From Escherichia phage KKP 3954: a stretch of DNA of 64,000 nucleotides. The stretch lies in sequence record OR067838.1. The stretch is one strand, 5' to 3'. The translations under genes and the position numbers were made by a program. Positions 1,821-52,858 of this stretch are shown here, piece by piece (position 1 is the stretch's first letter; the number at the start of each line of letters is the position of its first letter). The notes under the pieces are model-generated. The model saw only the letters and a program-made list of their open reading frames with translations. It was not told the origin of the DNA and ran no database searches.

Positions 1821-4217
1821 TTAGTCGGTTATGCTTGATATCGCTGCATACTGGTTCACGGATACAGGAGTTGCGTCTATTCTAGTGTTTCTCGATGATG
1901 ACCTAACCATCAGAAACACCATAGCGCGTCCAGATCCGTCAACATACTTGAGTATCCCTGTTGTATTTGCGGATATTTGTTGTAGGAATATCTGTCCTTG
2001 CGTTGTCGATGTAATAACAGCCGGAGTAGACACCACGGCTGAACCGATTATAAATACACTTATTTTTCCGGATAATTGATACAAAAGCGCCGCAGTTCCA
2101 GAAAACGTACCGGATGCCAATGTAACATTTATATCCCCCGACAACCGGATATACGCGCTTGGTGATGCCGTTATTGTTACGGATGAAGCGTTTATACGAA
2201 ACCCTTTATAACTGGTTACGACTCTGGTAAGTGAGACAGACCCTGTTACATTTATAACGAAGTCGCCGCGAAAACCACCTTTTTGTCTAACGATGTTTAC
2301 AATTTCTATCGCCCGCTCCAGAGATGCTACAGCCCTACCAGAAACAAATCCGGAGTTCTCATCGTTACCAGTTGCAGGGTTAACAAAGATTTCTCTCGTG
2401 AAATCCATCCCTAAATAGTTTACAGCAGACCAGTTACCAATACTTCCATAATCAGTAATAGCAGGGCTTACATTCTCTACGCGCAATGGTGCATTAGTGA
2501 ATGTTCCACCAACCATCCCATTAGAGAACCCTCCGACTGGGGGCATACCACGAGCAATAACTTTACGCTCAGTACCATCTTGACCACAGAAGAAGAACCC
2601 ATAGGAAAGACAGGTATAGTTAATTTGCGACCAGTTATCCAAATCTATATAACTGTTAGCTATCACAAAATTGTGACGCATAATCATATTGCCGCCTACA
2701 TCTTCTACGTGCGGCTTTCGTAAGTGAATGTCTGTATCGTTAAATGCGAACGCCTGCCTCCACCATTCAACGACAGGTTCGTCGATAACAAAATCACGAA
2801 CTGTATCGCAAGTTATACCAGTATTCTGATTTTTTCCTTCAGCAGTCCATGCCGTTGCTGGATAGACTAATTCTGGATTGTCGGCGTTAGCACCAACTCG
2901 TGCAACATAAGGATTGGTTATACGTAGCCCGGCGTTTGCCTTATAAAGATGGATACCCTGACGCATAGCCAGCACTTTAGGGGAACGGAAATCAGCACCC
3001 CATGACCATCTAAAATACATTCCTAACATGGGTGCTGATACCAGATTACCGCCACGTTCTGTGATTCCTATACTGGTTTTTGTACCTTTACATCCAGGGG
3101 ACATTGAGAAGTTAAGACCTATCTTGACACCGCCAGAACATGCTACTGATAGGTCGAATAGGAATCCATCTGACATCGTGATATAACCGTTCACATCGGT
3201 AATATCGTTGTCAGGCGTGCCGATTAAAGCGCCAGTTTTCCTCACATAAGAAATACCTGACAACTCAAAAACAACTGGTTCTGTAGCAGCGGTGTTTAAA
3301 TCCGTCGGAGCATAATAAAAACCAACTGGTATTTGTCTGTTGAAATAGGTCTGCGCACCAACCTGATCGTAATGTACATGACGCATAAGCAGGAGCGGAA
3401 CAGCAGACTCTACACGAGAAGTAAACACCACATGAACTGGTTTAAGGCTATATTTATATGCCTCCAAAGCTGTAGCGTTGGCGTAAGATGATGCCATACC
3501 CGCTGTGATATAAGAGTTCAGAGCGTTGATTTTTTCTGTGCCTGTTCCGGCGAAATCATCAACGTAAAGCTCATTAATCAGTTTCGCATACAATCCATTC
3601 ACGATTGGCATCGGCGTGACTTCGGAAACAATCTCCCATCTGGATCCACCAGTTGACACTTTCTGACCCAGAATAAGAGTTGCATCAGCAGCCATAGCCT
3701 GGATATTACTAAAGCCGTGCACATAACGATCTCCACCCTCACTAGAGATGTTTTCTTTAAGAGATGCATCGCCAACACTAACCCACGCTCCTAATTTAAC
3801 CTCACCTGTGCTATCTGGAGTTGAACCAGTTGGAACTATTTTTGGTAGGTCACTATCCCAAGTGTAGCACTGACCACCTGCAATATACCAAACAGCATCA
3901 GTAGATGTGGATACAGTAGCCCCCTCTTCAAAACTACCATCAACAAGTGTTAACCCCGCTTCAGCAAGACTACGACGCCACTGTTCACGATCATTAAGAA
4001 GATTGTTATTCAACTCTTCCTGAACAGTATTACCATTTGAGGATTGTATTAAATCTGCTCCATCTGTATCTTTCAACTGGGTGGCTAAAACCACCCCAGT
4101 GTCAGTAAGAAAGTTGGAAACTGTGCTTTTAACAGTTTTATCAGGTTGATCTAAAACCAGGTAATCTGAACCATTAACTTTTGATGTTTCGGGTAAATTA
4201 GTAATTGTAGTTGACAT
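1821..4217 (-). CDS. tail spike / tail fibre protein
   Basis: 798 aa, Gly/Ser/Thr/Asn-rich repetitive composition typical of beta-helix tailspikes; position in tail module. Confidence 0.45.
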   Translation of the reverse strand: MSTTITNLPETSKVNGSDYLVLDQPDKTVKSTVSNFLTDTGVVLATQLKDTDGADLIQSSNGNTVQEELNNNLLNDREQWRRSLAEAGLTLVDGSFEEGATVSTSTDAVWYIAGGQCYTWDSDLPKIVPTGSTPDSTGEVKLGAWVSVGDASLKENISSEGGDRYVHGFSNIQAMAADATLILGQKVSTGGSRWEIVSEVTPMPIVNGLYAKLINELYVDDFAGTGTEKINALNSYITAGMASSYANATALEAYKYSLKPVHVVFTSRVESAVPLLLMRHVHYDQVGAQTYFNRQIPVGFYYAPTDLNTAATEPVVFELSGISYVRKTGALIGTPDNDITDVNGYITMSDGFLFDLSVACSGGVKIGLNFSMSPGCKGTKTSIGITERGGNLVSAPMLGMYFRWSWGADFRSPKVLAMRQGIHLYKANAGLRITNPYVARVGANADNPELVYPATAWTAEGKNQNTGITCDTVRDFVIDEPVVEWWRQAFAFNDTDIHLRKPHVEDVGGNMIMRHNFVIANSYIDLDNWSQINYTCLSYGFFFCGQDGTERKVIARGMPPVGGFSNGMVGGTFTNAPLRVENVSPAITDYGSIGNWSAVNYLGMDFTREIFVNPATGNDENSGFVSGRAVASLERAIEIVNIVRQKGGFRGDFVINVTGSVSLTRVVTSYKGFRINASSVTITASPSAYIRLSGDINVTLASGTFSGTAALLYQLSGKISVFIIGSAVVSTPAVITSTTQGQIFLQQISANTTGILKYVDGSGRAMVFLMVRSSSRNTRIDATPVSVNQYAAISSITD

Positions 4218-12399: not shown

Positions 12400-12537
12400 T
12401 GTAACTGTATATGTTTGATCAGGTATACTCTTCAGTTTTCAGATACCATGCAAAATAAGTAGAATGGTCCTCCAGATAAACTGCACTGTAGCCTGTATTA
12501 CTTGTAGACCTTGTTGTTTTAGAATAAGTTGTCACTA

Positions 12538-13365: not shown

Positions 13366-14985
13366 TTAACCACCAGTGTTAGATTGTCCACTTAGAGTTG
13401 AAAGAGACAAACGTTGGAAAATACTATTTCCGCTATTTTGAATTCTTGCATCAAGAATATTTCCAAACTCGGAAGAAGGGCTGATCGTAACTTTGATAAG
13501 ATCACTTGGTATTGCTACCGTATTCTCAACAACAGGTTGATTACGAGCCAAACTTACGTTAGGTGTATAGGCTGATTCACGTAAATCTTCAAGAGGATTA
13601 CCAAATCCAAAAGCACGTGTCCTTGTTTGTTCTCCTCTCCACATACGACCAATATCTTGTGTATCAATACCTGTTAAATTATACAACCAATCTGCTACAG
13701 GATTGCTGTCTCCACTTTGCGTTGCCTCGTATGCTTTTTGTGCCAAAGATTTATTAGGATCTGTGTTGTCTCCGAAGGTATCTGGGAATGTTTCTTTAAG
13801 CCAATTGGTAAAAGATCCGAAACCATCTCCTAATTCTTTAGCAAAACCACCAAGTTGAACTGTTGTTTTACCAAGTTCTTCACCTAAATCTTTGGCGAAC
13901 TGATCTAGCACTTTAACGTTATCCAACCAAGAATCATCTTTAGGTAAAGCTTTTACAAAACCTTCTAAGAAATGGTTCTGCATACCTTGACCTACAAGCT
14001 GAACTGTTGCAGCAAAACGAGTAAACTCTTTAGAAGCATCTATTTGTTCTTGAGTTAATGTTGCACCTGTTCTTTGAAGCATTTTCAATACTTCATTATA
14101 CCCTTCGCCGTTTTTACTAAACATACGTTGGTAGTGCATAAGGTCATCACCAAGGTTTTCAAGAAGTCGCCCGATTTGAGCGGAGTTCATACCTCGACGC
14201 TCACCTTCATTAACAGTAGCCTGAATAAAAGCTAAAGGATCGTTCTGTAAAGGTTTAAGCTGTTCTGGATTCCATCCAAACAAGTTCATAATGTCAGTTA
14301 TGCCATTATCACCGCCTTTCCACTTCCCTTCTTTCTCATTCCACTTTGCAGCTAAAACTGTATTACCAAGACGTTCACGAACGTCTTTAATATTATCTAT
14401 TGATTTAATAATATTTGCAGAGTCTACACCGTTCTGTTCACCCCAAGCTGTCATTGCCAAAATAGCGTTGGCGTTTGTCTGAACGTTTTCAGCACCACGG
14501 CTTACAAGTTTAATTCTTTCGTTAGTATTCATCAACGTGTTACCAACTACAGAACCACCTGCAAACAGCCCAGCACCTATTAAAGAGGATGCAATCATGC
14601 GTGGATTAAGACCTGCCGCACCTTCTTTTAATTGTCCATATCGACGATCACGATCACGTTTTTGTTGAGCTAATTCACGCTTACGGTTGCGTTCTATATC
14701 TCTAAGTTCACGATTTCGCATACGTATACGCATTTTAGCTTCTGCTTCTAACTCTCTACGAATACGGCGACGACCGCGAACCTCGTCTTCTATTTCAGCA
14801 TTCTTTTCACGATGCGATCTGCGTAAAGCATCCAACTGGTGAGCAAGAGCTTGGTTCATACGTTGAAGAGTTATTTCACCCTTTTTGTATTGCTCTACAG
14901 CTTTACCCATAACATCTCTAGCTTCTTGCATAGCGCCAGGACTGGCTTTACTAAATGCTCTTGCTCTGTAGTTAAAGTTCTGCAA
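13366..14985 (-). CDS. tail tape measure protein, main part
   Basis: 539 aa, Arg/Glu-rich coiled-coil N-region then Gly-rich hydrophobic segment; follows tail chaperones. Confidence 0.5.
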   Translation of the reverse strand: MQNFNYRARAFSKASPGAMQEARDVMGKAVEQYKKGEITLQRMNQALAHQLDALRRSHREKNAEIEDEVRGRRRIRRELEAEAKMRIRMRNRELRDIERNRKRELAQQKRDRDRRYGQLKEGAAGLNPRMIASSLIGAGLFAGGSVVGNTLMNTNERIKLVSRGAENVQTNANAILAMTAWGEQNGVDSANIIKSIDNIKDVRERLGNTVLAAKWNEKEGKWKGGDNGITDIMNLFGWNPEQLKPLQNDPLAFIQATVNEGERRGMNSAQIGRLLENLGDDLMHYQRMFSKNGEGYNEVLKMLQRTGATLTQEQIDASKEFTRFAATVQLVGQGMQNHFLEGFVKALPKDDSWLDNVKVLDQFAKDLGEELGKTTVQLGGFAKELGDGFGSFTNWLKETFPDTFGDNTDPNKSLAQKAYEATQSGDSNPVADWLYNLTGIDTQDIGRMWRGEQTRTRAFGFGNPLEDLRESAYTPNVSLARNQPVVENTVAIPSDLIKVTISPSSEFGNILDARIQNSGNSIFQRLSLSTLSGQSNTGG

Positions 14986-15043
14986 ACGAAGATTACCTAA
15001 GTCTTCCCTACGTGCTGCTGCTTTAGCTTCGCGTTCAGCAGCT

Positions 15044-15355
15044 TTACGAGCTTTTTTCTTCTTCTCTTCCTTGCGGGGTTTTAGGAGTTCTAGGTCTGCC
15101 AGATCCGCCTACAGGAGCACCCGCTCCAGCGGGAGTAGGTGCTCGCATAGGTTTTTGACTTTGAGTTTGAGCTTTCTTAAGTTCACGCTCAATCTCTTTC
15201 ATTTGTTGTCTAAACTTGGTCATGTTCATAGTGGGTTGCATTTTATTTGCAAACTTCTGAACACTCAACACGGCATCTTTTGCTTCCTTGAGACTGTTCT
15301 TGTCCACCTTAAACGTAACCACGTTACTAATTTTGGAGGCGTTAATTTCTAACAA
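15044..15355 (-). CDS. tape measure protein N-terminal segment, separated by apparent frameshift
   Basis: Frame stays open from 15099 into the 13366..14985 ORF; deleting one A of the A6 run at 15047-15052 fuses them. Confidence 0.4.
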   Translation of the reverse strand: MLEINASKISNVVTFKVDKNSLKEAKDAVLSVQKFANKMQPTMNMTKFRQQMKEIERELKKAQTQSQKPMRAPTPAGAGAPVGGSGRPRTPKTPQGREEEKSS

Positions 15356-15375
15356 AGTATGTTCCTCGTGTTGGA

Positions 15376-15714
15376 TTAAACAAGTTTCTTAAACAAATCT
15401 GACATTTTATTTGTCTGGTTTTGATGTTTTCTCTTTATTGAAGTGTCTTTAACATACATGGCTTCAACATACTCTTCGTATGTTAAATACTCATATAGTT
15501 TTAAAAGATAATCTACACCGTAGTTATCCAATGTTTTCAGTGTTTCCGAGGTATCTTTAACGACTTTGCAAAGAATAACCTCATACCACTTCAAAGTAAG
15601 GGTTTTCGTTGCTGTGTCGATAGCATGTTCAATCGCAGGTGTTAATTTGCTGCTAAACTCGTCATCGCCTGAAGCTGTGTGAACAGTTTTCCGAAACCTC
15701 GTTTGAAAAAAGGG
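15376..15714 (-). CDS. tail assembly chaperone frameshift extension (gpGT-like)
   Basis: The -1 frame is open from the slippery site into ORF 15376..15594. Confidence 0.45.
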   Translation of the reverse strand, partial: PFFQTRFRKTVHTASGDDEFSSKLTPAIEHAIDTATKTLTLKWYEVILCKVVKDTSETLKTLDNYGVDYLLKLYEYLTYEEYVEAMYVKDTSIKRKHQNQTNKMSDLFKKLV

Positions 15715-16124
15715 CCGTAGTTTACCTCCAGAACTTTAGCAGTAAGATCTAACACTAGTTCTGGGTGAGCCATAAATAATTCATCAAAATTTTCTGCAAC
15801 GTTATAACCGTCTTGAGTATAAACCTCATCTAAAATTTTACGCAAAAAGACAGTTAAATTCTTTTCTTCCAAACCTGCAAAAAGTTGGATCAGTGCCATA
15901 GCAATACGTGACTCAAGGTCTTCGTCTGCGGACATTGTTGCTGTGCTATACATAGTCATAGGAACAACCAGAACACTACCCAATTCTGGAATCCTGTCAA
16001 ACACTTTAGATGGACTCCACTTCATAATACGGAAAGTAACAGATCTGTTTCCATCTAACGGAATCTCAACTACTTCTTCTGGTCGAGCATATTTTTGAAT
16101 TGTGTTATCTTGTTCTTGTGACAT
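15642..16124 (-). CDS. tail assembly chaperone (gpG-like)
   Basis: 160 aa between tube and tape measure; contains slippery heptamer near 3' end. Confidence 0.5.
   Translation of the reverse strand: MSQEQDNTIQKYARPEEVVEIPLDGNRSVTFRIMKWSPSKVFDRIPELGSVLVVPMTMYSTATMSADEDLESRIAMALIQLFAGLEEKNLTVFLRKILDEVYTQDGYNVAENFDELFMAHPELVLDLTAKVLEVNYGPFFKRGFGKLFTQLQAMTSLAAN
15708..15714 (-). promoter_or_regulatory. -1 ribosomal frameshift slippery heptamer C_CCU_UUU
   Basis: Minus-strand GGC CCT TTT TTC; X_XXY_YYZ in the zero frame of the chaperone gene. Confidence 0.5.
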
Positions 16125-16169
16125 ATTTTCCTCTCTAATGATAAAAAGGGCATTTCTGCCCTTTATTTA

Positions 16170-16649
16170 TTATTGAATTGTCAGAGCAGAGATTGAGTTA
16201 AGGGTGCTCAAACCTACACCAACTTCATTACGCAGAAGGCTTGCATCTTTAAGACCAATAACCCATTGGTTCTCTGTAATCATTTCGCCAATAGTATCTT
16301 CAGGCTGACTTTGAATCCATCCAATCGTGCTAATGTAATAGCCACGTGGGTCTTCCAAGTAAACACTGAATGCTACTTGACGAGTAGAATACATTGTTTG
16401 TGCATATGTTGCAAGTACTTCGTTAGCTGGAGATGTGCGTTGCAAAGACATTGTGAGTGTTCCCAAACGGTTACGACTCAAAGCTAGTGAAACGTCGCCA
16501 TCAGTCCCTGAATAAGGGTTGATAATATCGTTAGATTTAGCAATAACGATTTTAGTATCAGCCGCAAAACCCCACGGTTCCCAACCACCTAATGAAAGGA
16601 TAACTTGAGATGGGTCGTAGGCCATTACGCCAGTAAGCATTTTATCCAT
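16170..16649 (-). CDS. tail tube protein
   Basis: 159 aa directly downstream of sheath. Confidence 0.5.
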   Translation of the reverse strand: MDKMLTGVMAYDPSQVILSLGGWEPWGFAADTKIVIAKSNDIINPYSGTDGDVSLALSRNRLGTLTMSLQRTSPANEVLATYAQTMYSTRQVAFSVYLEDPRGYYISTIGWIQSQPEDTIGEMITENQWVIGLKDASLLRNEVGVGLSTLNSISALTIQ

Positions 16650-16661
16650 TATAGATCCTCT

Positions 16662-17783
16662 TTATTTTGATAACGGGGGGCTTAACCCCCGCCGTATTAG
16701 TTTGCAAGTACGGTTAGTCAGGACGTTGACCTGAACTTTAACGTAATGGAAGAAGCCAGCGTAAACATATTCAATCTTCATCCCATCAACCAGACGAGCA
16801 TTGATTTGCGCATCGGTCATATCGGCACGAGAAGGAATATAAACAATAGGTTTCAGATCGACACGCAAACCAGTCTCTTCAGAAGTAACAACTTCATTAG
16901 CGATGGAACCGTTGAGGATACCTACTTGGATCGGGTTAGCCAGAACAGCTTGTCGAATCAAAGCCAGACCGTTTGAAGTAGCACGAACACCACCACCCAG
17001 CATAGACTGTTGTTTAAACAGTGTAAACAGTGATTCTTCTGTGCGAGCTTTAAACCACAAAGCATGAACAACATAGTCAACAAAGAAACCGCTAACCATC
17101 AATCCATCACGATAGAACAGAGTTCCATGCTCTTTACGATAGATGTTACCGTTCTGTTGAACAATATTGTTTTCCGAAGTCTGATCCAGTTTCTCGATCT
17201 CTACTCCTACCAGTGTTTTACCGTGAAGGGTAGTTAAACCAGGTTGACGAGAACAGATTGCACCAACAACTGCTGCTTCTGGGAATACAGAATCTGCATC
17301 AGTCATCCACAAAGCAAAGCAAGTGTTATTATAACCGAGGTCATTCAGTCGTTCCAGAACGTTATCTTCTGCTTTCGTTTTAATTCCAGGTTCAGAGCTA
17401 GAGAAGAAGTAAACTTTATCATTCTCTTCTACCCATGCAGCCAAAGCTAGAACATCTTCTGTTTCATGGGAATCTGAAAGGGTCCAGAACCAGCTACTAT
17501 CAATATCATGCAGAGCAGCGATATCTTCCGTAATAGCATTAGCATAGACAGTTTCTTGAGTGAAACCTGTGCTGTCAATAGAACCAAACTTACCTTCTAC
17601 TGGAGTGAAAGTCATTGCAGCGCCGTTGTTAGCTACTGTAAACAGTGGGCCATAAACAAGATCTGCATTGATCATTTCAGTCAGACCAACTACAATCTCT
17701 TGTGCAGTTGCAGTGTCATCAGCAATGAATTTAAATTCTTTTTTCTTGGGTACCATTTTTGATGGTAATTGTGTAAGTTGCAC
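16662..17783 (-). CDS. tail sheath protein, C-terminal part
   Basis: 373 aa; overlaps upstream fragment in another frame at an A6/T6 run. Confidence 0.5.
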   Translation of the reverse strand: MQLTQLPSKMVPKKKEFKFIADDTATAQEIVVGLTEMINADLVYGPLFTVANNGAAMTFTPVEGKFGSIDSTGFTQETVYANAITEDIAALHDIDSSWFWTLSDSHETEDVLALAAWVEENDKVYFFSSSEPGIKTKAEDNVLERLNDLGYNNTCFALWMTDADSVFPEAAVVGAICSRQPGLTTLHGKTLVGVEIEKLDQTSENNIVQQNGNIYRKEHGTLFYRDGLMVSGFFVDYVVHALWFKARTEESLFTLFKQQSMLGGGVRATSNGLALIRQAVLANPIQVGILNGSIANEVVTSEETGLRVDLKPIVYIPSRADMTDAQINARLVDGMKIEYVYAGFFHYVKVQVNVLTNRTCKLIRRGLSPPLSK

Positions 17784-51863: not shown

Positions 51864-52349
51864 ATGCGCTATCTGGTAACAGGTGGTCTTGGTTTTATTG
51901 GGAGCGCCGTGGTGCGCTCTCTTTGTCAAGATCCTAATAACGAAGTTTTTATCATTGATAAAATGGGTTATGCAGCAGACATTGAGAATGTAGGTGATAT
52001 CACTCACGCTAAACTAAGCATGACAGATTTGGCAAACGAAGCCCAGGTCAAAAGTTTAGTAGTAGAGTGCAATCCCGATTTCATCATTCACTTAGCGGCA
52101 GAGAGCCATGTGGATAATTCTATCAAGAATCCACGAGCTTTCATCGACTCCAATATTATTGGTACATACAATTTATTGGAAGCTGCAAGGCTCCTCCCAA
52201 AGAATAAACTGAAGATGTTCATACACGTCTCCACAGACGAAGTGTATACGGTGATATGGCAGACTCTGGCGTTCCCTTTACCGAAGAGACAGCTTATGCC
52301 CCTTCAAGCCCGTACAGTGCGTCTAAGGCAGCATCTGACCATCTTGTGA
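51864..52349 (+). CDS. rmlB: dTDP-glucose 4,6-dehydratase, N-terminal fragment
   Basis: Rossmann GGLGFIGS; reads through HVSTDEVY then leaves frame. Confidence 0.75.
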   Translation: MRYLVTGGLGFIGSAVVRSLCQDPNNEVFIIDKMGYAADIENVGDITHAKLSMTDLANEAQVKSLVVECNPDFIIHLAAESHVDNSIKNPRAFIDSNIIGTYNLLEAARLLPKNKLKMFIHVSTDEVYTVIWQTLAFPLPKRQLMPLQARTVRLRQHLTIL

Positions 52350-52858
52350 AAGCTTGGCACCGTACCTACGATTTACCTGTTGTGATAACCAACTGCTCCA
52401 ATAACTTTGGACCCTATCAACATCCAGAAAAGCTGATCCCAAAAATCATCACAAGTATCTTGACGAATAAAGAGATTCCGGTGTATGGTAAAGGCGATCA
52501 GGTGCGAGACTGGCTTTTTGTTGAGGATCATGCGCGAGCTATTCTTCAAGTGGCAACAGGTGGAGAACCAGGTAAAACGTATAATGTGGGAACACGTAAT
52601 CCCAAAACCAATATGGAGATCATCTATATGGTTTGTGACTACATGGATGCTGTACATCCAGAAGCAGGAACCTACCCTTCTTCCAACTTGATAACTTTTG
52701 TTGAAGATCGTAAAGGGCATGACTTGCGTTATGAAATCAATCCTTCTAAGATAGAGTTTGAACTGGGTTGGAGTGCAAACTCTACATTTGAACAAGATCT
52801 CTACTCAACGATTGAATGGTACTTAAACAACCCTCAATGGTGGAGTGGGAAGATTTAA
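52256..52858 (+). CDS. rmlB: dTDP-glucose 4,6-dehydratase, C-terminal fragment
   Basis: Continues VYGDMADSG...[13 protein letters not shown] (YxxxK) in shifted frame. Confidence 0.75.

Follow-up and report, generated by a model that had tools for sequence, protein, structure and literature searches.

The tail assembly chaperone gene in the DNA analysed here, a stretch of 64,000 nucleotides from Escherichia phage KKP 3954 (sequence record OR067838.1, below called the window), very probably carries a canonical programmed -1 ribosomal frameshift. The window belongs to a Phapecoctavirus and is 99.8% identical to ESCO5 and vB_EcoM_REC over positions 15000-17000. A short product, G, and a longer frameshifted product, G-T, are predicted from the locus. 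The sequences directly show the signal, how the frames are arranged, and that both are conserved and under selection; we infer the actual slip, its efficiency and the roles of the two proteins from them.

The chaperone locus and its -1 reading frame

The tail genes in this region lie on the minus strand. The zero-frame chaperone ORF (G, or TAC-N; 15642..16124, minus strand) has an ATG start and an AGGA ribosome binding site, encodes 160 aa, and ends at a stop codon at 15644-15642. Its product matches the Pfam family PF21822 (Phage_TAC_15) with 84.3 bits against a cut-off of 22, and the PHROGs family phrog_3840, 'tail assembly chaperone', with 2.8e-55. The upstream neighbour is the tail tube gene (16170..16649, minus strand), which belongs to phrog_280, scores 24.4 bits against Pfam KPP10_Orf10, slightly below the 25-bit cut-off, and is named putative tail tube or DUF3277 in the records of relatives. 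Downstream lies the tape measure gene (TMP; 13366..15355, minus strand), with a TTG start 20 nt past the G-T stop; in ESCO5 this gene is a single 1989-nt CDS, and in the window it is broken by a 1-nt insertion near 15052. The window and 13 annotated relatives share the gene order sheath, tube, TAC, small ORF, TMP. The initial annotation had called the gene a tail assembly chaperone upstream of the tape measure gene, and the Pfam and PHROGs matches together with the gene order bear this out: as these matches indicate, ORF 16124-15642 is the tail assembly chaperone, located between the tube and tape measure genes.

Around the putative slip site the zero frame of G reads GTA AAC TAC GGC CCT TTT TTC AAA CGA GGT TTC GGA. 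It contains a slippery decamer, C_CCT_TTT_TTC (15705..15714, minus strand), in which two heptamers overlap: C_CCT_TTT (15714-15708) and T_TTT_TTC (15711-15705) occupy codons 138-140 of the 160 in G and include a T6 run at 15706-15711. The initial annotation had named C_CCT_TTT at 15708-15714 as the slip heptamer, and it can indeed be read there in the X_XXY_YYZ register. It had further stated that the -1 frame stays open from the heptamer through ORF 15376-15594, which is also what we found: this frame, open between 15735 and 15376, spans the listed ORF 15594-15376 and meets a stop only at the TAA at 15378-15376. On the other side, the last -1 frame stop before the slip site, a TAA (15736..15738, minus strand), sets the upstream limit of productive shifting. 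Another heptamer further upstream in G, A_AAT_TTT, was rejected as a candidate; it precedes this -1 frame stop and would give 0 codons of extension.

Past the slip site the -1 extension amounts to 109-110 codons, and the T part (15376..15705, minus strand) consists of 109 codons and the TAA stop. The predicted G-T protein, join(16124..15705, 15705..15376), is 249 aa long, with 140 aa from G and 109 aa from the -1 frame, whose translation at the junction reads FQTRFRK. The two heptamers predict an identical 249-aa product, and the junction tryptic peptide, VLEVNYGPFFQTR, is likewise the same under both; the corresponding G peptide is VLEVNYGPFFK. The T part matches phrog_16039 and phrog_10409, which are both listed as 'unknown function'.

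The length of this extension was compared with those at all 75 in-frame X_XXY_YYZ heptamers in the window's ORFs of 100 aa or more. The -1 extensions at these heptamers have a median of 6 codons and a 95th percentile of 48, compared with 109-110 at the chaperone site, and given the observed -1-frame stop frequency of 0.106, a run of 109 open codons is expected by chance with a probability of ~5e-6. The sole longer extension, of 192 codons after CCCTTTA (52274-52280), was rejected as a candidate frameshift because the dTDP-glucose 4,6-dehydratase gene is split there by an extra base in the window.

Conservation of the site and alternative explanations

A tblastn search with the G-T fusion found ~358 phage records, and where both parts were matched, the match came in two pieces. 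For a closer comparison we used 12 divergent annotated loci, namely those of phiWec181, PHB05 (Justusliebigvirus), KP13-16, rV5, Hena1 and Ro1, as well as Av-05, SSE121, DU_PP_IV, A73, ChuuTotoro and F5M1E; in the most divergent of the annotated loci, G is just ~25% identical to that of the window. A sample of 39 loci from IMG/VR, 34 of them unique, was added. One of the two peptide patterns used for retrieving these includes FF, so that the sample is biased towards FF, without any bias on codon choice or on the openness of the -1 frame. T_TTT_TTC is present in frame in 13/13 annotated loci of Stephanstirmvirinae and Vequintavirinae, which cover Phapecoctavirus, Justusliebigvirus, Vequintavirus, Henunavirus, Mydovirus, Avunavirus, Seunavirus and Certrevirus, and in 34/34 unique IMG/VR loci; counted together, 46/46 unique loci have it. 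In the compared loci this heptamer lies 23-37 codons ahead of the G stop, the -1 frame opens just 4-24 codons before it, and the -1 extension runs for 101-131 codons, ending shortly before the tape measure gene.

C_CCT_TTT has a narrower distribution: it occurs only in Stephanstirmvirinae-like loci (14/34 unique IMG/VR loci). In Vequintavirinae, TGT or AGT precedes the T run instead of CCT, and the loci of this subfamily read GTTTTTTC at the site. Across the loci compared, the universally conserved candidate heptamer is thus T_TTT_TTC, which lies 3 nt downstream of C_CCT_TTT and overlaps it. The slip heptamer of the initial annotation is therefore a valid one, but it is not the one that relatives share; since either heptamer predicts the same G-T protein, the functional conclusion drawn from it stands. 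The expectation of a G and a G-T product agrees with the arrangement being conserved in every relative examined, and with the signs of selection at the site.

These signs are seen in the codons. In 47 unique G sequences, F139 is encoded by TTT in 47/47 and F140 by TTC in 47/47, and the wobble base just before the F139 codon is invariably T (CCT, TGT or AGT). Other invariant Phe columns vary in codon, with 25 TTC to 22 TTT at F31 and 32 TTC to 15 TTT at F117. Dual coding does not account for the codon invariance at F139 and F140, because translation in the -1 frame leaves out the bases before the slip point; a requirement that tRNAs re-pair at the predicted slip site does account for it. Three codons past the slip, the -1 frame encodes an R-F-R motif (AGG TTT CGG; 15691..15699, minus strand), which is present in 45/46 unique loci. 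The CGG to AGG change in rV5 is synonymous in the -1 frame and turns Phe into Leu in frame 0, and the CGG to CGC change in Ro1 is again synonymous in the -1 frame, with Gly becoming Ala in frame 0. The conserved GGTTTCGG motif was also considered as a spacing-dependent RNA stimulator, and was rejected because its distance to the heptamer differs by one codon between the subfamilies while the R-F-R translation is invariant. Past the G stop, the -1 frame has the periodicity usual for coding sequence: its column entropies at codon positions 1, 2 and 3 are 1.06, 0.91 and 1.60, and the corresponding values for frame 0 of G are 1.01, 0.64 and 1.51. Within the G/T overlap, frame 0 is dominant and the -1 frame there is a variable Ser/Gly/Asp-rich linker. 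Taken together, the comparison supports translation of the -1 frame from the slip site onward.

As to stimulatory elements, RNAalifold gave no consensus downstream structure for 9 Vequintavirinae sequences, and for 4 Stephanstirmvirinae sequences merely a weak fold that takes in the heptamer itself; the alignment folds held ~0 kcal/mol of structure downstream. The 85 nt downstream in the window folded no better than shuffles (z = +0.95), an Rfam scan of 15300-16200 found no element and just a chance sub-threshold match to SraG, and no conserved hairpin or pseudoknot 5-9 nt past the heptamer, of the IS3 or dnaX type, emerged from the fold tests. Because no conserved downstream structure was found, frameshift efficiency may be low. 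The lambda G-T frameshift likewise works without downstream RNA structure. Upstream of the site there is an internal Shine-Dalgarno (SD)-like GGAGG (15725..15729, minus strand), separated from T_TTT_TTC by 13 nt and from C_CCT_TTT by 10 nt. Of 28 unique contexts, 18 have such an SD-like core 13-14 nt before the site and 2 have one at 22 nt; the other 8, Certrevirus among them, lack it. The element overlaps conserved Glu-Val codons, and because of this coincidence GGAGG can be put forward only as a possible upstream stimulator of shifting. Sharma et al. measured heptamers of the class H_HH.U_UU.Y, which includes both of those found here, to be efficient in E. coli, and they list U_UU.U_UU.C as one that IS elements employ (PMC4066793).

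The frameshift could also work in a different way at the same run. In this phage C_CCU_UUU (15714-15708), and not U_UUU_UUC, might be the working slip site, with tRNA-Pro and tRNA-Phe slipping to CCC and UUU. It is a valid in-frame X_XXY_YYZ heptamer that is kept in all Stephanstirmvirinae-like loci, GGAGG lies 10 nt upstream of it at a dnaX-like spacing, and C_CC.U_UU.U gives measurable frameshifting in E. coli (PMC4066793). Yet it is missing from all Vequintavirinae relatives, which have the same G/G-T arrangement, the only universal heptamer among the unique loci being T_TTT_TTC (34/34 versus 14/34), and its Pro codon could merely reflect a Pro versus Cys/Ser difference in the residue; we consider it improbable as the sole slip site, a choice that would leave the protein product identical. 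A conceivable but doubtful variant is that Stephanstirmvirinae have extended an ancestral U_UUU_UUC to a double decamer, C_CCU_UUU_UUC, with GGAGG 10-13 nt upstream and without 3' structure, giving two consecutive chances to slip and a G:G-T ratio that is higher or differently tuned than in Vequintavirinae. If this were true, the decamer would be a small natural experiment in which frameshift efficiency is tuned by heptamer stacking. The T6 run might, on the other hand, act at the level of transcription, with RNA polymerase dropping or adding a U so that some mRNAs carry G and T in frame. The site is a homopolymer run, but efficient polymerase slippage usually needs runs of 7 to 9 or more, longer than T6, and the run is always exactly T6 with non-T flanks (28/28 unique contexts). 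Because of polymerase slippage, E. coli genes avoid U7 runs (PMC4066793). Moreover, the exact X_XXY_YYZ register and the fixed T wobble are needed by ribosomal re-pairing and not by polymerase slippage, so that the T6 pattern fits ribosomal re-pairing better, and transcriptional slippage appears very unlikely.

The remaining alternatives dispense with a frameshift altogether. The 72-aa ORF with a TTG start (15376..15594, minus strand), a 'hypothetical protein' in some records, might be an independent small gene beginning at this TTG, with the heptamer being incidental. Many relatives indeed have it annotated as a 'hypothetical protein' CDS, and it forms PHROGs families of its own, phrog_16039 and phrog_10409. 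Its TTG at 15594 lacks an SD sequence, however, whereas every G start has one, and its annotated start varies between records. The first start-like codon is found anywhere from T codon 29 to 84 depending on the lineage and is not conserved; in Hena1 and Ro1 it even falls past the conserved SSLxW(F/Y)DYL domain. The conserved residues and the -1-frame periodicity reach upstream of any start, up to the heptamer. We give a separate gene hardly any credence, and on this comparison 15376..15594 is the C-terminal part of the predicted G-T. Finally, the break between G and T might be a sequencing or assembly indel in what is one ordinary G-T ORF. Relative to ESCO5, the window does contain private insertions of single bases, at 12424, 15052, 16675, 16706 and 17748, and private 1-nt insertions break the tape measure, sheath and rfbB genes. 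Nonetheless, 15053-16486, including the T6 run, is identical to ESCO5, and therefore the frame break is no assembly artefact. The same break is present in 46/46 unique loci from independent genomes and metagenomes, and frame 0 in the overlap is still coding-like, which is consistent with a real G terminus, leaving an indel with next to no probability. A programmed ribosomal -1 frameshift is thus our preferred explanation of the locus.

Predicted products and annotation status

In the proposed mechanism, the majority of ribosomes would stop at the end of G after 160 aa, and a minority would slip one base back on C_CCU_UUU_UUC. The tRNA-Phe molecules on UUU in the P site and UUC in the A site would re-pair with UUU and UUU, while slipping of tRNA-Pro and tRNA-Phe on CCU-UUU may be a second route in this lineage. 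The next codon after the slip would be CAA at 15705-15703, and the slipped ribosomes would read 109 more codons to complete the 249-aa G-T. This protein would retain essentially the whole TAC domain (residues 1-140). In place of the 20-aa tail of G it would have the R-F-R motif and the variable Ser/Gly/Asp-rich linker, as well as a basic tail and a conserved, helical domain of ~60 aa. The roles of lambda gpG and gpGT suggest, by analogy, that binding to the tape measure protein would fall to the T part, with the G part coating that protein and recruiting tube subunits; neither G nor G-T would stay in the finished tail.

Structure prediction was applied to both products. An AlphaFold2 model of G built with 21 homologues has a pLDDT of 72 and a pTM of 0.68, and its last confident helix spans residues 121-141; the helix thus ends at the slip site, and G-T would therefore keep the whole TAC domain. 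A search of BFVD with this model matched predicted phage TACs with E values from 1e-6 to 1e-3, among them the G of Hena1 (1.2e-6), a Rheinheimera phage TAC (8.6e-6) and the 212-aa tape measure chaperone of Moogle (probability 0.99). The fold search of the PDB with the G model gave nothing at E <= 0.001, the best TM-score being that of the HK97 TAC, 2ob9, with E = 4.3, and a sequence search of the PDB with G-T gave no meaningful match. Single-sequence AlphaFold2 of the 249-aa G-T produced a mean pLDDT of 40, and this model was unusable.

The long chaperone is not represented in current annotations. In the RefSeq record of ESCO5, G alone is annotated and 15594-15376 is left empty, and in vB_Ec-G1 the latter stretch is annotated as a separate hypothetical protein. 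A joined CDS was found in 0/16 inspected GenBank/RefSeq records of Stephanstirmvirinae and Vequintavirinae; these records either lack the long chaperone or give its C-terminal part as a separate 'hypothetical protein'. When the G-T fusion was searched against 5.8 billion public proteins, there were 41 matches, all of 158-175 aa and corresponding to G only, and no fusion of ~250 aa. Our literature search found no report of a frameshift for Phapecoctavirus, Stephanstirmvirinae or Vequintavirinae, and no proteomics or genetics on G and G-T of this phage or genus. Recognition of T_TTT_TTC would allow a joined CDS to be annotated and one spurious gene family to be removed across the two subfamilies, many members of which are phage-therapy candidates against E. 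coli, Klebsiella, Salmonella, Erwinia and Pectobacterium. The biology is as phage specialists would expect and raises no new question, so the main value lies in annotation.

Comparison with known frameshift systems

The best-known parallel is lambda gpG/gpGT, part of a tail-chaperone frameshift that is reportedly conserved among dsDNA phages. The lambda locus resembles the one described here in having two overlapping ORFs between the major tail or tube gene and the tape measure gene, in a -1 shift that yields a short abundant and a long rare product, which in our case is predicted from sequence, and in needing no 3' stimulatory structure. The heptamer is G_GGA_AAG in lambda versus U_UUU_UUC, plus C_CCU_UUU, here; furthermore, we are dealing with a 150-kb contractile-tailed phage, whose G falls into another of the Pfam TAC families (PF21822). 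In the myovirus P2, the chaperone pair gpE/gpE+E' is likewise said to arise from a -1 frameshift, at a heptamer reported to be T_TTT_TTG. The similarity to P2 lies in a U-rich heptamer shortly upstream of the tape measure gene, whereas the protein family is unrelated in sequence. Signals of the dnaX type reportedly use an upstream internal Shine-Dalgarno sequence, and the GGAGG 10-13 nt before the slippery run is close to the stimulating spacing in dnaX; the differences are that a downstream hairpin is lacking here, and that the SD-like element varies by lineage.

More closely related systems are known as well. In 2025, a conserved -1 programmed frameshift with a GTTTTT motif was described at the TAC locus of Vandenendeviridae (Pakpunavirus) and Andersonviridae, and the accessible portion of that report presents these families as relatives of Vequintavirinae and Stephanstirmvirinae (PMC12846349). 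Judging from the same portion, those loci share with ours a TAC-N with poly-T at its 3' end and an uninterrupted -1 frame across a region that is labelled intergenic or 'hypothetical protein'. The frameshift alignments contained in it cover only Vandenendeviridae and Andersonviridae, and not Stephanstirmvirinae or Vequintavirinae. Compared with the GTTTTT motif given there, the window has a C instead of a G before the T run, and this C creates the second, overlapping heptamer.

The nearest annotated counterpart is found in the Felix O1-like Citrobacter phage Moogle (KM236239), in which a joined -1 CDS is annotated as 'tape measure chaperone', and whose genome announcement mentions a translational frameshift (PMC4319497). 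As in the window, the chaperone belongs to PF21822 (72 bits) and the joined CDS lies directly upstream of the tape measure gene, and T_TTT_TTC, in the context AGT TTT TTC, falls in the homologous N-x-G-x-F-F motif (N-F-G-S-F-F in Moogle) at the end of the TAC domain. The G of Moogle differs in being 133 aa long and very divergent, with a 39-residue local BLASTP match to our G (E = 2e-4), and its join is annotated, as opposed to the 16 Stephanstirmvirinae and Vequintavirinae records. The heptamer and its position in PF21822 are thus shared with Felix O1-like phages, which would make this an old, frozen recoding signal. Based on these sequence comparisons, the site in the window is an unannotated case of a well-known recoding signal, homologous to the annotated Felix O1-like site.

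Single-base insertions and split genes

Compared with phage ESCO5, a close relative, the window carries private single-base insertions at 12424, 15052, 16675, 16706 and 17748, and several of these insertions fall within or beside short homopolymer runs. One or more private insertions break the tape measure gene (15355-13366, minus strand), leaving one ORF of 103 aa and another of 539 aa; the sheath gene (18072-16662, minus strand) is broken in the same way, and its two ORFs measure 113 and 373 aa. In the alignment, 2001 bases of the window correspond to 1998 bases in the top relatives among the matches listed. The private single-base insertions relative to ESCO5 are probably sequencing or assembly errors.

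An in-frame heptamer, CCCTTTA, is also located at 52274-52280, within 51864-52858 on the plus strand, where it is followed by a -1 extension of 192 codons. This heptamer was considered as a second frameshift site and rejected, since the gene in question is a dTDP-glucose 4,6-dehydratase gene that has been split by one or more extra bases in the window. The same gene is an unbroken 993-nt CDS in phage ukendt, and the alignment of this region pairs 1401 bases in the window with 1399 in the relatives.

Related loci in other phage records

Pectobacterium phage DU_PP_IV has two additional annotated ORFs of 117 nt and 762 nt (2299-3177 in the DU_PP_IV locus L011), which separate the chaperone locus from the tape measure gene and are absent from the other relatives. 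These ORFs may represent a mobile insertion. Among the matches in the phage collection, several records labelled 'Campylobacter phage', including A110a, C9 and A12a, contain loci close to those of E. coli Justusliebigvirus and rV5-like phages, which suggests that the dataset in question includes phages that are mislabelled or are contaminants.

Hairpins and starts around the chaperone gene

A terminator-like hairpin is located in the interval between the tube and chaperone genes (16145-16164, minus strand; AAAGGGCAGAAATGCCCTTT, followed by a T-rich tail), and this hairpin could result in less transcription of the chaperone and tape measure genes than of the tube gene. At the other end of the chaperone locus, the tape measure gene starts with a TTG at 15355 on the minus strand, preceded by GAGGAA; this TTG start is common to the close relatives, and is annotated as such in ESCO5. 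The junction upstream of this gene differs between subfamilies. In the Vequintavirinae loci (L006-L014), the stop codon of the predicted G-T frameshift product and the tape measure gene are separated by a GC-rich hairpin with a T run, annotated as a rho-independent terminator in the rV5 record, whereas in the Stephanstirmvirinae the G-T stop is directly followed by an SD sequence and the TTG or ATG start codon of the tape measure gene.
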